64,000 nt of DNA, from NCBI GenBank assembly GCA_965601925.1, contig OZ271854.1:3584001-3648000 (forward strand), given 5' to 3'. Source of the DNA: Alkalispirochaeta sp. GTDB taxonomy: Bacteria; Spirochaetota; Spirochaetia; DSM-27196; Alkalispirochaetaceae. A program made the position numbers. Below are positions 24,001 through 27,000 of the stretch, piece by piece (position 1 is the first letter of the stretch; every line of letters starts with the position of its first letter).

Positions 24001-27000
24001 GATCGTTCGCCCCTCGTCGCCGACCGACGGGACTGCGTCGCCCCGCGCTCCGCTCGCTGCTTTTCGGTTACTCATTGGTGGACCTCCTCCTCTTGTCTCT
24101 CTCTCGCCTGCGTCATCAAACCGTACGAGATAAAAAAAAGCCGTCCTCCCTGCGGAAGGACGGCTTCTTCTCCGACTGTATGTACAGCCTATCCTTCCGT
24201 GTGCACGTATGGCGCTCCAATAATAATGAACAGGCCGAGAATGGTTATAATGATGAGTCTTACGGTCGGAAACATCCGCATATCCGGAATAGAATCGGGA
24301 ATCGGACACGATATGTCAAGTCCGAATCGTCGCGAATCGGTGATTTGCCACCCTTTCTCCACGATTGCGATGGATGTTACGCCAAAAAGTGTGCCCGATC
24401 GCGACCATTTACACCAAATTGCCGCTTTTTCCGATATATTTGGATGTAGCTATGGATCGTTCCGCCGTGTTTGATCGGTTGAGTGAACAGCTCGCCGACG
24501 AAGATCGCCGACATATGCTCGCCTCGATTCGAAAGTCGATGGAGAGCGAGGCGGCGCCCCTCGCCCCCGAGTCGGAACCCGATCCGCTACCGGTTGAGAA
24601 TCAAATCGAGTTGCTCGGATTCTGGAAGCGCTTTCTACTCATTCTTGCGCAACTGTTCATCGGCCGCGACCGGGAGGAGACGGTAAAGCAATGGATGCTT
24701 CGCGATCTCGAGCAGCAGATTCAAAGGACCGGAGGGGATGCGGTCGATGTCCGCCGCCGTGCCTTTCGCGAATCCTTTGCGGTCGATCTTGAGGCGCTCG
24801 CCGAGTGTTCGGCGGCTCTGGAGCCGGTGATGCGCAACGTTATCCGCCGGAGAACGGAACTCGTCTTGACTCTGGCGATGTACTTTTTCCCCGGGATTCA
24901 CCGTGAGCTGTTACATCGCACCGGCGAAGGCTACATCGCGTCCCTCAACGAGGAGAGCGAGCGGTATCTCAAGCGGCGCCTCTCGGATTATCTCGACGAT
25001 GCGATGAACGACATTCCCCCGGAACATCGCTCGGCCATGAGAAACGCCCTTGCTCAAGCGGACATGCTCATGCGCTTGCTTTCGTTCTCTTATCGTTCGA
25101 TGCTGAACTCCTTCGACGATATGGCCGATCCCACCGCCAGGCAGTGCGCATTTGACTATCTCAGTCGCAGTCTGGTCGATTTATACGAGACGCTTTCGGC
25201 GTTTCACGCTCCCCTCGATCTGACCTTGCTCGAAACGATCGTATTGTTTGCCAACGAAGACGAACGACGCGACGAGGGCCCGGTCGAAGAGGAGGAGTTT
25301 CAGGAAGCGGTGCGGTCGGGGTTGGAGGAACTGCTGGATGGGTTGCGAACGTTCCGTAGCTTTGCCGCTCGCTATCCGCTGCTCAAAGTGATTCGGCTTG
25401 TCCGCGAGGATCCGTGGTGGAACCACCACGTCGAGTCGGGCGGGGAGGATTGGTTCGCTCTGTATCGCGCCTTTTTCGTAGATCGCATCCAGCGGCAAGT
25501 CCTGCGCGTCTCCCTCCACAACCAGTTGCGCAAGTATCTCTCCGATCTCAGCGAGTTGTGCGGCCCGACGCTACGGCCGCTGGAAGGGTTGCCCGCCGGC
25601 GACATGGGAAGCCGGACCTACCACTGGTATCTCGGCCTTGCGCTCAGAACCTTCGTCTCCACCATCTGGACGTCGGTGTTACCCCATTTACGCATTATTC
25701 TCACCAGCGGAGAGTTCTATAAGAGTTCCAATCGCGCGCAGTTCAACGACGCCTACAACGAGTTTGAGCAAATTCCCGATCGCATTGAGAACCTCGAACG
25801 GAGCCTGGAGCCCGACCAAGCGTGGGGGATCGCCCTCAGTGGCGGACAGGACGCGATGCATCGCGAGAAGATGGCGCGGCGGATCGATCAGGAGCTACAG
25901 CAGATCGCCAAGGAGGCGCGTATCACACTCGAGTCTCTCGTCAATCTCTTGGGTGGTATTCTCTACGCACGGCCCGGTAGCTCCTACGACACCATCGCCA
26001 ATTTCGGCCAGATCGGCGGTAGGCGCAATGCAGAACTCGTCGACGAGCTGAAGGAGAGTCACCATCGCTTGGCCGGGTTCCTCGGCGTGATGGGCGAGAT
26101 CGACGCCGTTGAGCGACGCGCCATCGAACACAATATCAGTGTGGAACTGGGTCTCCGCTCTCCCACCGCGACATAACGCCGCGTCATCGGATCGATCGTT
26201 TACTCTAATGGGCTGACGAGGGGGCGCGTCATAGGCTATCGTGCCAGTCTATGAAGCAGCACTGGACTTTTTGGAAGCCACTGGTAATCGCCGCCCTCGC
26301 CGAAGTGGCGGGAAACGCGGCTGATCGCGATACACTGGTGTCGGCGCTTCTTGTAGAGACGCCCCCGGATACGACGAAGGGCGACATCGCCTTTCCGCTA
26401 TTTCCCTTTGCCCGCTTACTCAAGCGTAACCCGACCCAGATTGCAGCCGCGGTAGCCGAGCGACTCTCCGAGAACGAGGCGATAGGCGACGCGCGCGTCG
26501 AGGCGGCCGGCCCGTATGTGAACGTCTTTCTCGATCGTGGTCGCGTCGCCGCGGAGATCATAAATGCCGTCCTCGCGGCCGAGGACTCCTACGGTAACGG
26601 CTCGGCCCTCGCCGGGCAGCGTGTCATGATCGAGTTCAGCGGCCCCAACACCAACAAACCTCTCCATCTCGGTCACTTGCGCAACGACGCGCTGGGCGAG
26701 AGCGTCTCACGACTCTTGCACGCCGCCGGCGCCGAGGTGCGGAAGGTTAACATCGTCAACGATCGCGGTATCCATATATGTAAGTCGATGCTCGCCTACA
26801 AGCGCTTCGGTAATGGAAGTACTCCGGAGAGCGAAGGGAAGAAACCCGACCATTTCGTCGGCGACTACTATGTGCGCTATGCGCAGTGGGAGAAGGAGGA
26901 ACCCGGCGCCGAGGCTGAAGCGCGCGCAATGCTCGAGGCGTGGGAGGCCGGCGACGCGGAGACGCAGGAGCTGTGGCGGCGCATGAACGACTGGGCGGTT

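Follow-up and report, generated by a model that had tools for sequence, protein, structure and literature searches.

In enterobacteria, leader-peptide attenuators precede ilvGMEDA (ilvL), thr (thrL; Rfam RF00506), ilvBN (ivbL), and leu (leuL), and thrL and ilvL are multivalent. The leader described here, which lies upstream of cimA in Alkalispirochaeta sp., shares with these systems a short reading frame with cognate codons, a layout of 1:2, 2:3, and 3:4 pairings, and a U-tailed terminator before the first gene. It differs from them in its target, cimA, in the lack of a Shine-Dalgarno sequence, and in an antiterminator arm that often contains the leader stop codon. Unlike thrL and ilvL, the cimA leader is dominated by Ile alone. 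Attenuation was reportedly not predicted in spirochaetes by Lopatovskaya in 2010, in a survey that is said to name leuA and not cimA.

Among attenuators of branched-chain operons, the Corynebacterium ilvBNC leader (ilvB-II motif) likewise combines a branched-chain codon-rich uORF with a predicted terminator and antiterminator; the portion of the paper available sets it apart by its description as an I/L/V-multivalent uORF attenuator that acts on ilvB in another phylum (PMC10272879). A title cited in the same paper concerns leader peptide formation without a ribosome-binding site. The Leptospira ilvB motif (WRC-14-1), with seven representatives, is a proposed uORF attenuator of unconfirmed function (PMC8632094, PMC10272879). 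It belongs to the spirochaete phylum and the branched-chain pathway, as does the cimA leader, but is set apart by its description in these sources as Val- and Thr-rich and placed before ilvB, and it is the one published uORF attenuator candidate from the phylum that we found in the text available. In the literature searched, which left most subscription papers outside reach, we found no report of an attenuator for cimA or for the class Spirochaetia, nor any description of transcriptional control of the citramalate route to isoleucine. The first-pass annotation had found no report for cimA or for spirochaete attenuators, which holds for cimA in the literature searched and has to be amended for spirochaetes by the Leptospira ilvB proposal, as far as the accessible part of PMC10272879 describes it. 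In the sections available, PMC4833913 does not mention cimA and includes spirochaetes only within leader-distance statistics; its supplement and that of PMC8632094 list further uORFs that may bear on novelty.

Leaders whose translation begins right at the transcript's 5′ end, as predicted here, are described in the available parts of two reports with mapped 5′ ends, on Sinorhizobium meliloti trpL (PMC6614838) and on mycobacterial poly-Cys sORFs (bioRxiv 10.1101/834739). Those attenuator leaders serve other amino acids in other phyla, whereas the 5′ end of the cimA leader is a prediction only. In Bacillota, T-boxes regulate genes of the leuA/cimA family (COG0119), as outlined in the available part of PMC12452182; they too sense the charging state of tRNA and act on a terminator before these genes, but T-box control involves neither a ribosome nor a leader peptide. 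No T-box was matched by Rfam at an E value of ≤10 between positions 23900 and 24600. Known Rfam leaders (Thr_leader RF00506, Phe_leader RF01859, and others) gave best scores of 18.8 and 19.5 bits against a gathering threshold of 55, with no gathering hit in 16 loci. By these searches, the predicted attenuator is a member of no Rfam family.

Anatomy of the cimA locus

The window is a stretch of 64,000 nucleotides of Alkalispirochaeta sp. contig OZ271854.1 (assembly GCA_965601925.1, contig positions 3,584,001 to 3,648,000), and all positions below are counted within it; cimA and its predicted switch are encoded on the reverse strand. The proposed regulated gene, cimA (22435..24075), encodes a 546-aa protein with HMGL-like, HCS_D2, and LeuA_dimer domains that scores 601.1 bits against TIGR00977 (cutoff, 450) and only 107 bits against the Leptospira-type model NF042433 (cutoff, 950). 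By family assignment, this TIGR00977 protein is citramalate synthase, the entry enzyme of threonine-independent isoleucine synthesis. No ilvA gene over cutoff was found with two models in the genome, a single contig that is 96.7% complete. Threonine-deaminase-like genes are present in 20 of 41 genomes of the order (over cutoff in 1), so cimA need not be the sole entry to isoleucine there. An Ile-sensing leader would provide independent support for TIGR00977 proteins here serving isoleucine synthesis. The closest named records carry the labels Spirochaeta and Spirochaetaceae.

A predicted −35 hexamer with the exact sequence TTGACA (24314..24319) is separated by a 17-nt spacer from a predicted −10 hexamer, GATTCT (24291..24296), which keeps A2 and T6 but does not begin with T. 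The exact TTGACA hexamer occurs at only 799 sites on both strands of the genome. T was the first −10 base in just 1 of 33 cimA-family leaders, compared with 109 of 173 TTGACA-17-NANNNT sites genome-wide. A consensus promoter scan of positions 23000 to 25500 returned nothing, and the −10 box of the leader scores under the threshold of that scan.

The leader ORF (24189..24281) begins 9 nt past the −10 box and consists of 30 codons followed by TAG, with the sequence MRMFPTVRLIIITILGLFIIIGAPYVHTEG. The first-pass annotation had correctly placed a 30-codon Ile-rich leader before cimA, although it counted eight Ile codons where there are seven. These putative control codons, at positions 10, 11, 12, 14, 19, 20, and 21 (24219..24254), comprise five ATT, one ATC, and one ATA, and the probability of at least 7 Ile in 29 codons at the Ile frequency of the genome is 8e−4. 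Transcription would begin just upstream of the leader ATG, and a start there would mean that the leader is read without a Shine-Dalgarno sequence. The anti-Shine-Dalgarno duplex of the leader ORF is −3.3 kcal/mol and never stronger than −6.4 kcal/mol across 33 leaders. Since a good Shine-Dalgarno sequence is absent from all 33, we infer that translation of the cimA leader probably begins at the transcript's 5′ end, leaderless or nearly so. The cimA gene itself has a Shine-Dalgarno sequence (24083..24092) 7 nt before its ATG at 24075.

Between the leader and cimA lies the strong U-tailed hairpin noted before, an intrinsic terminator (segments 3:4, 24138..24166) of 13 bp and −22.3 kcal/mol, identified by folding and covariation, with a tract of 8 U (24132..24139). 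The 225-nt leader region folds with a z score of −2.96, and none of 200 shuffles was equally stable.

A scan of the 5-Mb genome yielded 158 terminators and 328 pairs of a short ORF and a terminator. The ORF directly follows a TTGACA-type promoter in only three of these pairs: one is a tRNA-Leu gene, another the Leu-rich leader of leuA, and the third the cimA leader. The Ile skew is not outstanding genome-wide without the promoter filter, as 16 other short ORFs are more skewed for some residue; those 16 mostly resemble the ends of ordinary genes. No leader with a terminator was found in the 420 nt upstream of the other branched-chain genes of the genome (the ilvB, ilvC, leuB, and leuC copies).

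The antiterminator and the predicted switch

The antiterminator is formed by the end of the leader itself. Segment 2 (24191..24199) takes in the codons for Glu and Gly together with the initial base of the stop codon, and its partner is 24161-24153 in the 5′ arm of the terminator. This duplex has an energy of −22.2 kcal/mol in the window, and 0.3% of 300 shuffles were as strong. In an alignment of 22 distinct leaders, 90.9% of the cells in the nine antiterminator pairs are paired and four of the nine pairs show two-sided change. The antiterminator covariation score of 0.270 was reached by 2 of 500 shuffles (slid registers gave 0.10 to 0.15), and the terminator in the same 22 rows, with 99.2% of cells paired, scored 0.310, reached by none of 500, in a test whose shuffles can be beaten by kinship among sequences without structure.

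Folding was computed for a transcript ending at the terminator loop, in which the ribosome masked a fixed footprint that extends 12 nt past the A site. In the window, about 11 antiterminator bp formed with codons 11 to 23 in the A site and 5 to 8 bp with codons 8 to 10, and a ribosome at codons 1 to 7 likewise permitted the antiterminator. No antiterminator pairs formed with codons 24 to 31 in the A site or without a ribosome. In the ribosome-free fold, segment 1 (24228..24237), the predicted 5′ arm of a protector, pairs with 24194-24185 in place of the antiterminator. With segment 4 included, the equilibrium fold favors the full terminator over the antiterminator at every ribosome position, and the switch must therefore be kinetic. 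The antiterminator pairing that the first-pass annotation had still lacked is thus present; it covaries, and in silico its formation depends on where the ribosome sits.

We consider it very likely that a classical ribosome-mediated transcription attenuator sensing charged tRNA-Ile controls cimA, a proposal of the first-pass annotation that gains support from the anatomy, conservation, covariation, match between codons and operon, and in silico switching. When isoleucine is plentiful, the ribosome would pass codon 23 and reach the stop codon, where it would cover segment 2, so that the 3:4 terminator would form and transcription would end at the U-tract, some 57 nt before cimA. When Ile-tRNA is scarce, a ribosome stalled on Ile codons 11 to 21 would cover segment 1 and leave segment 2 free; the 2:3 pairing would then form before segment 4 emerges, and polymerase would read into cimA. 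Without translation, the 1:2 pairing would form, and termination would be the default.

The free RNA available to the terminator arm was compared across the 33 leaders, giving median duplex energies of −20.5 kcal/mol with the ribosome at the last Ile codon, −4.3 kcal/mol at the stop codon, and −14.9 kcal/mol for shuffles. In 29 of 33 leaders, a ribosome at the stall left over 3 bp more pairing than one at the stop (in silico, fixed footprint). The antiterminator duplex reached a P value of ≤0.05 in 21 of the 33 and was not above shuffles in the other 12 (e.g., L045, P = 0.87; L011, P = 0.42; L047, P = 0.35), and by base-pair count, at least 29 of 30 shuffles were beaten in only 10 of 33. Leader length varies from 22 to 50 codons, and in 32 of 33 leaders a distance of 35 to 61 nt separates the last Ile codon from the terminator. 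The segment-2 arm is paired upstream in 31 of 33 leaders, a count made without a shuffle control; the antiterminator is held to ≤3 bp without a ribosome in only 17 of 33, and the protector is clear in the window. A conserved pause hairpin lying after the stop codon and before the terminator was rejected, as the P value was 0.02 in the window but ≤0.05 in only 6 of 33 leaders.

TnaC and SpeFL are leader peptides that stall the ribosome in response to a metabolite. A similar nascent-peptide arrest, in which the Ile run and C-terminal EG of the leader peptide would stall the ribosome on free isoleucine or another metabolite and the hairpins would follow, draws on the EG or GG end of many leaders of the home family, and ribosome arrest at the stop codon would be compatible with a leaderless start and with the position of that codon within the antiterminator arm. 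The peptide ends vary among leaders, however (EE, GR, GA, DA, RA, DV, SS, EK, and HR), and L024, L025, and L030 carry the complementary arm past the stop codon, beyond the ORF, which indicates that the conserved element is RNA pairing. In the fold model, moreover, a ribosome halted at the stop would keep the antiterminator from forming and switch cimA off, and the codon bias to ATT and CTA given below points to tRNA sensing. We regard peptide arrest as very improbable. For the same reasons, EG* was rejected as a peptide motif: leaders had been described as mostly ending in EG*, and while EG and GG ends are indeed common in the home family, the variable ends and the three arms behind the stop codon make them better explained as a by-product of the RNA antiterminator arm.

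Leader codons and operon content in the order

cimA was found in 39 of the 41 genomes of the order that were searched, alone in 24 and behind leuA in 15 (leuA was of the bacterial type in the one tested). Leaders were called by a rule that required an exact TTGACA, a spacer of 17 to 18 nt, NANNNT, a start 4 to 11 nt further on, and a stop 5 to 45 nt before a terminator. This rule identified leaders in 33 of the 39 cimA genomes, 19 of 24 with cimA alone and 14 of 15 with leuA-cimA. Two further leaders were recognized by eye, for a total of 35 of 39: L050, which has a misplaced match start and is matched by the RNA model R1 described below, and L023, which is cut by a contig end. L051 contains a short Ile-ending ORF and a terminator inside an operon and is a candidate only. 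No leader was found in the DNA examined for L046, L048, and L052, of which L048 and L052 have a promoter directly before cimA. In L050 and the 33 leaders called by rule, an exact TTGACA precedes the leader start by 27 to 33 nt, a spacing that is partly built in, since the rule demands a promoter. Free of this bias is the count that the hexamer is present in 34 of the 35 loci with a leader and a terminator, and the remaining locus is truncated. The first-pass annotation had reported leaders in 10 of 23 cimA loci, a figure superseded by 33 of 39 genomes once operon heads were examined; its objection that 13 of 23 loci lacked a leader is mostly answered, because most of the apparently negative loci are leuA-cimA operons with the leader upstream of leuA.

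Within the order, the Leu content of the element tracks whether the operon includes leuA. Leaders of lone cimA genes (n = 19) contain 1 to 4 Leu (mean, 2.1) and 3 to 10 Ile (mean, 6.1), and those of leuA-cimA operons (n = 14) contain 4 to 9 Leu (mean, 5.7) and 3 to 6 Ile (mean, 4.2). Leu equals or exceeds Ile in 14 of 14 leuA-cimA leaders versus 1 of 19 lone-cimA leaders. Where leuA shares the operon, relatives appear to have retuned the same switch to leucine and isoleucine. A quick CimA tree of 36 rows requires five changes to account for the operon form, at least three of them on starred branches, and a sign test of the codon/operon match gave a P value of 0.25 on the three independent pairs (starred branches of this quick tree), a number with which the test cannot reach significance. 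Of 174 Ile codons in the leaders, 119 are ATT, a codon with a 21% share in the long ORFs of the Alkalispirochaeta sp. genome, and CTA supplies 26 of 119 Leu codons, against 3.7%, both relative to this one-genome background.

A yeast-type LeuA (TIGR00970) is encoded in 22 of the 24 lone-cimA genomes and in none of the 15 leuA-cimA operon genomes. Of 20 yeast-type leuA genes inspected in relatives, a terminator accompanies 19, and 14 are preceded by a promoter-anchored leader with 3 to 11 Leu and 0 to 3 Ile codons. These leaders form a different RNA family, as R1 gave one marginal match in 19 loci.

The leader might instead be translation coupled and answer general ribosome speed or stress, or be multivalent for Ile, Leu, Val, and Thr, with no sensing specific to Ile-tRNA. 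Any ribosome held at codons 1 to 7 or 11 to 23 permits the antiterminator in the fold model, and three Leu codons, one Thr codon, and one Phe codon lie in or beside that region. The look-alike leaders of Streptomyces coelicolor ilvB and leuA failed the response predicted for codon mutation and, in the account available, did not act like classical attenuators when mutated (PMC1262725), which also counts against the attenuator favored here. Against this reading, Ile accounts for 7 of the 12 codons from 10 to 21, and Ile runs are kept across the class while the paralogous leuA leaders of the same genomes swap to Leu. We therefore consider a general or multivalent response unlikely.

The ORF could also be an independent gene for a small hydrophobic peptide, membrane-bound or type I toxin-like, with its own terminator and with cimA expressed by leak or from a separate promoter. 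Residues 9 to 21 are almost wholly hydrophobic, and the ORF has both a promoter and a strong terminator. The leader ORF has no Pfam match, however, and no promoter-like site was found between the terminator and cimA. Many homologues have just a short hydrophobic patch interrupted by charged residues or Pro (L019, L028, L030, and L149). The position at the head of branched-chain operons, a composition that tracks the operon, and the covarying antiterminator also argue against a separate peptide gene, which we judge extremely improbable.

The Ile-tRNA attenuator that we favor follows a textbook mechanism and is unsurprising to a specialist; its target, its class, and the apparent repeated retuning of its codons add interest, and sensor codons that follow operon content make it an evolutionary case. 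On balance, we lean toward a history in which one leaderless attenuator module, ancestral to much of Spirochaetia, was reprogrammed as operons changed. On several independent occasions, a yeast-type leuA equipped with a Leu attenuator of its own would have displaced the bacterial-type operon leuA (or the reverse), with the cimA leader shedding (or gaining) Leu codons and the RNA switch being kept. Such reprogramming, if true, would constitute a repeated natural experiment in which the specificity of a ribosome sensor follows gene content, and leader codons alone could serve to annotate LeuA versus CimA paralogs.

Range of the element in the class Spirochaetia

Of 151 genomes sampled across the class Spirochaetia, 117 carry cimA. 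Upstream DNA was compared for 60 cimA-bearing genomes of the class, 59 of them outside the order, and was extended further for 18. The RNA model R1 was built from 23 leaders of the order and matched 11 of 16 held-out loci of the order, as well as 27 of the 59 genomes outside it, from 18 families. In a search of the Alkalispirochaeta sp. genome, the cimA locus was its sole strong-scoring match. Matches to R1 are located before cimA alone, before leuA-cimA, and before operons whose first ORFs resemble ilvB-ilvN in size and N terminus. Judged by sequence, the attenuator element appears to be one Spirochaetia RNA family that heads the branched-chain operon containing cimA, whichever that is.

Outside the order, the leaders of several leuA-containing operons have more Ile than Leu (L153, 8/3; L152, 10/6; L164 via L202, 8/3), and the codon match is accordingly weaker there. 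No leader was found in the DNA examined for many lineages of the class, some of which have a promoter directly at cimA. R1 matched none of 77 non-spirochaete cimA loci. With a loose rule applied to the 450 nt directly upstream, a scope that leaves operon heads outside, an Ile-rich ORF with a terminator was found in 2 of the 77, both Desulfobacterota-type records. Attenuator motifs may have originated in the gammaproteobacteria with few transfers, and classical attenuation had been regarded as concentrated in a few phyla, according to the available part of PMC3766115; a class-wide spirochaete family would add to them. The structure of the family can be aligned and is ready for an Rfam model.

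The leader is identical in contigs from three of four runs of one sample, which probably share the source of the DNA in the window and so are not independent evidence. A divergent DUF5312 gene on the forward strand (24452..26176; PF17239, E value of 7.6e−68) lies outside the switch and is a recurring upstream neighbor. Similar DUF5312-like N termini, judged by eye, are encoded on the reverse strand upstream of the leaders of many relatives.

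Leu leaders before yeast-type leuA

In the own genome, a predicted Leu attenuator, comprising a leader and a terminator, precedes the yeast-type leuA gene (G000:C1:4087592-4087699, minus strand). The leader ORF has 35 codons, 7 of them for Leu (4 of these CTA), and starts 8 nt downstream of the -10 box; the terminator has a calculated energy of -25.9 kcal/mol. At yeast-type leuA loci of relatives, a terminator was found in 19 of 20 cases and a leader was called by our fixed rule in 14 of 20. The leuA leaders form a second conserved family beside the cimA-family leaders, and the three loci tested gave no match in Rfam. 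At one leuA locus, L239, both leader and terminator are absent from the upstream region, and by eye the end of a transposase-like ORF lies immediately upstream.

The own genome also carries an ilvB-ilvN-leuC-leuD-ilvD cluster (G000:C1:3930571-3936583). Neither a leader nor a terminator was found upstream of ilvB; attenuation therefore appears to be confined in this genome to the two pathway-specific first steps, cimA and leuA.

Promoter and neighborhood of the cimA-family leaders

The predicted -10 box of the cimA leader (window 24291-24296) does not begin with T, and T is the first base in only 1 of the 33 cimA-family leaders of the order (the window and 32 relatives). Of the leuA leaders in the same genomes, 12 of 14 have a T-first -10 box; genome-wide, so do 109 of 173 TTGACA-17-NANNNT sites. 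Candidate explanations for the non-T start are a promoter kept weak on purpose, the involvement of an activator, or a -10 box placed in the wrong register.

A DUF5312 gene (window 24452-26176, plus strand) is the divergent neighbor of the leader and recurs in this position whether the leader stands before cimA, leuA, or ilvB. A second organism of the same sample has a cimA stretch about 86% alike to window 23834-24002.

Missing, probably unrelated, and unusual leaders

The attenuator is cleanly missing from the DNA upstream of cimA at L048, L052, L151, L158, L174, and L192, where the cimA start lies directly behind a TTGACA promoter. The genomes of L048 (G028) and L052 (G036) both contain a full-length threonine-deaminase-like gene.

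Short Ile-rich ORFs also precede cimA outside the spirochaetes, in Desulfobacteria of the Thermodesulfobacteriota (L097 and L114, the only two with a called terminator), BRC1 (L058), and Anaerolineae (L080). None of the four matched R1, the RNA model built from 23 leaders of the order, and they are therefore probably independent families.

At L051, in the stretch about 95 to 210 nt upstream of the cimA match, a 15-codon ORF with three Ile codons at its end overlaps the 3' end of a preceding ilvN-sized gene; a terminator lies downstream of this short ORF. This arrangement is possibly an operon-internal attenuator started via translational coupling. Long, very Ile-rich leader candidates head ilvB operons at L210 (54 codons, 15 Ile) and L204, both of which belong to the class's distant CimA clade.
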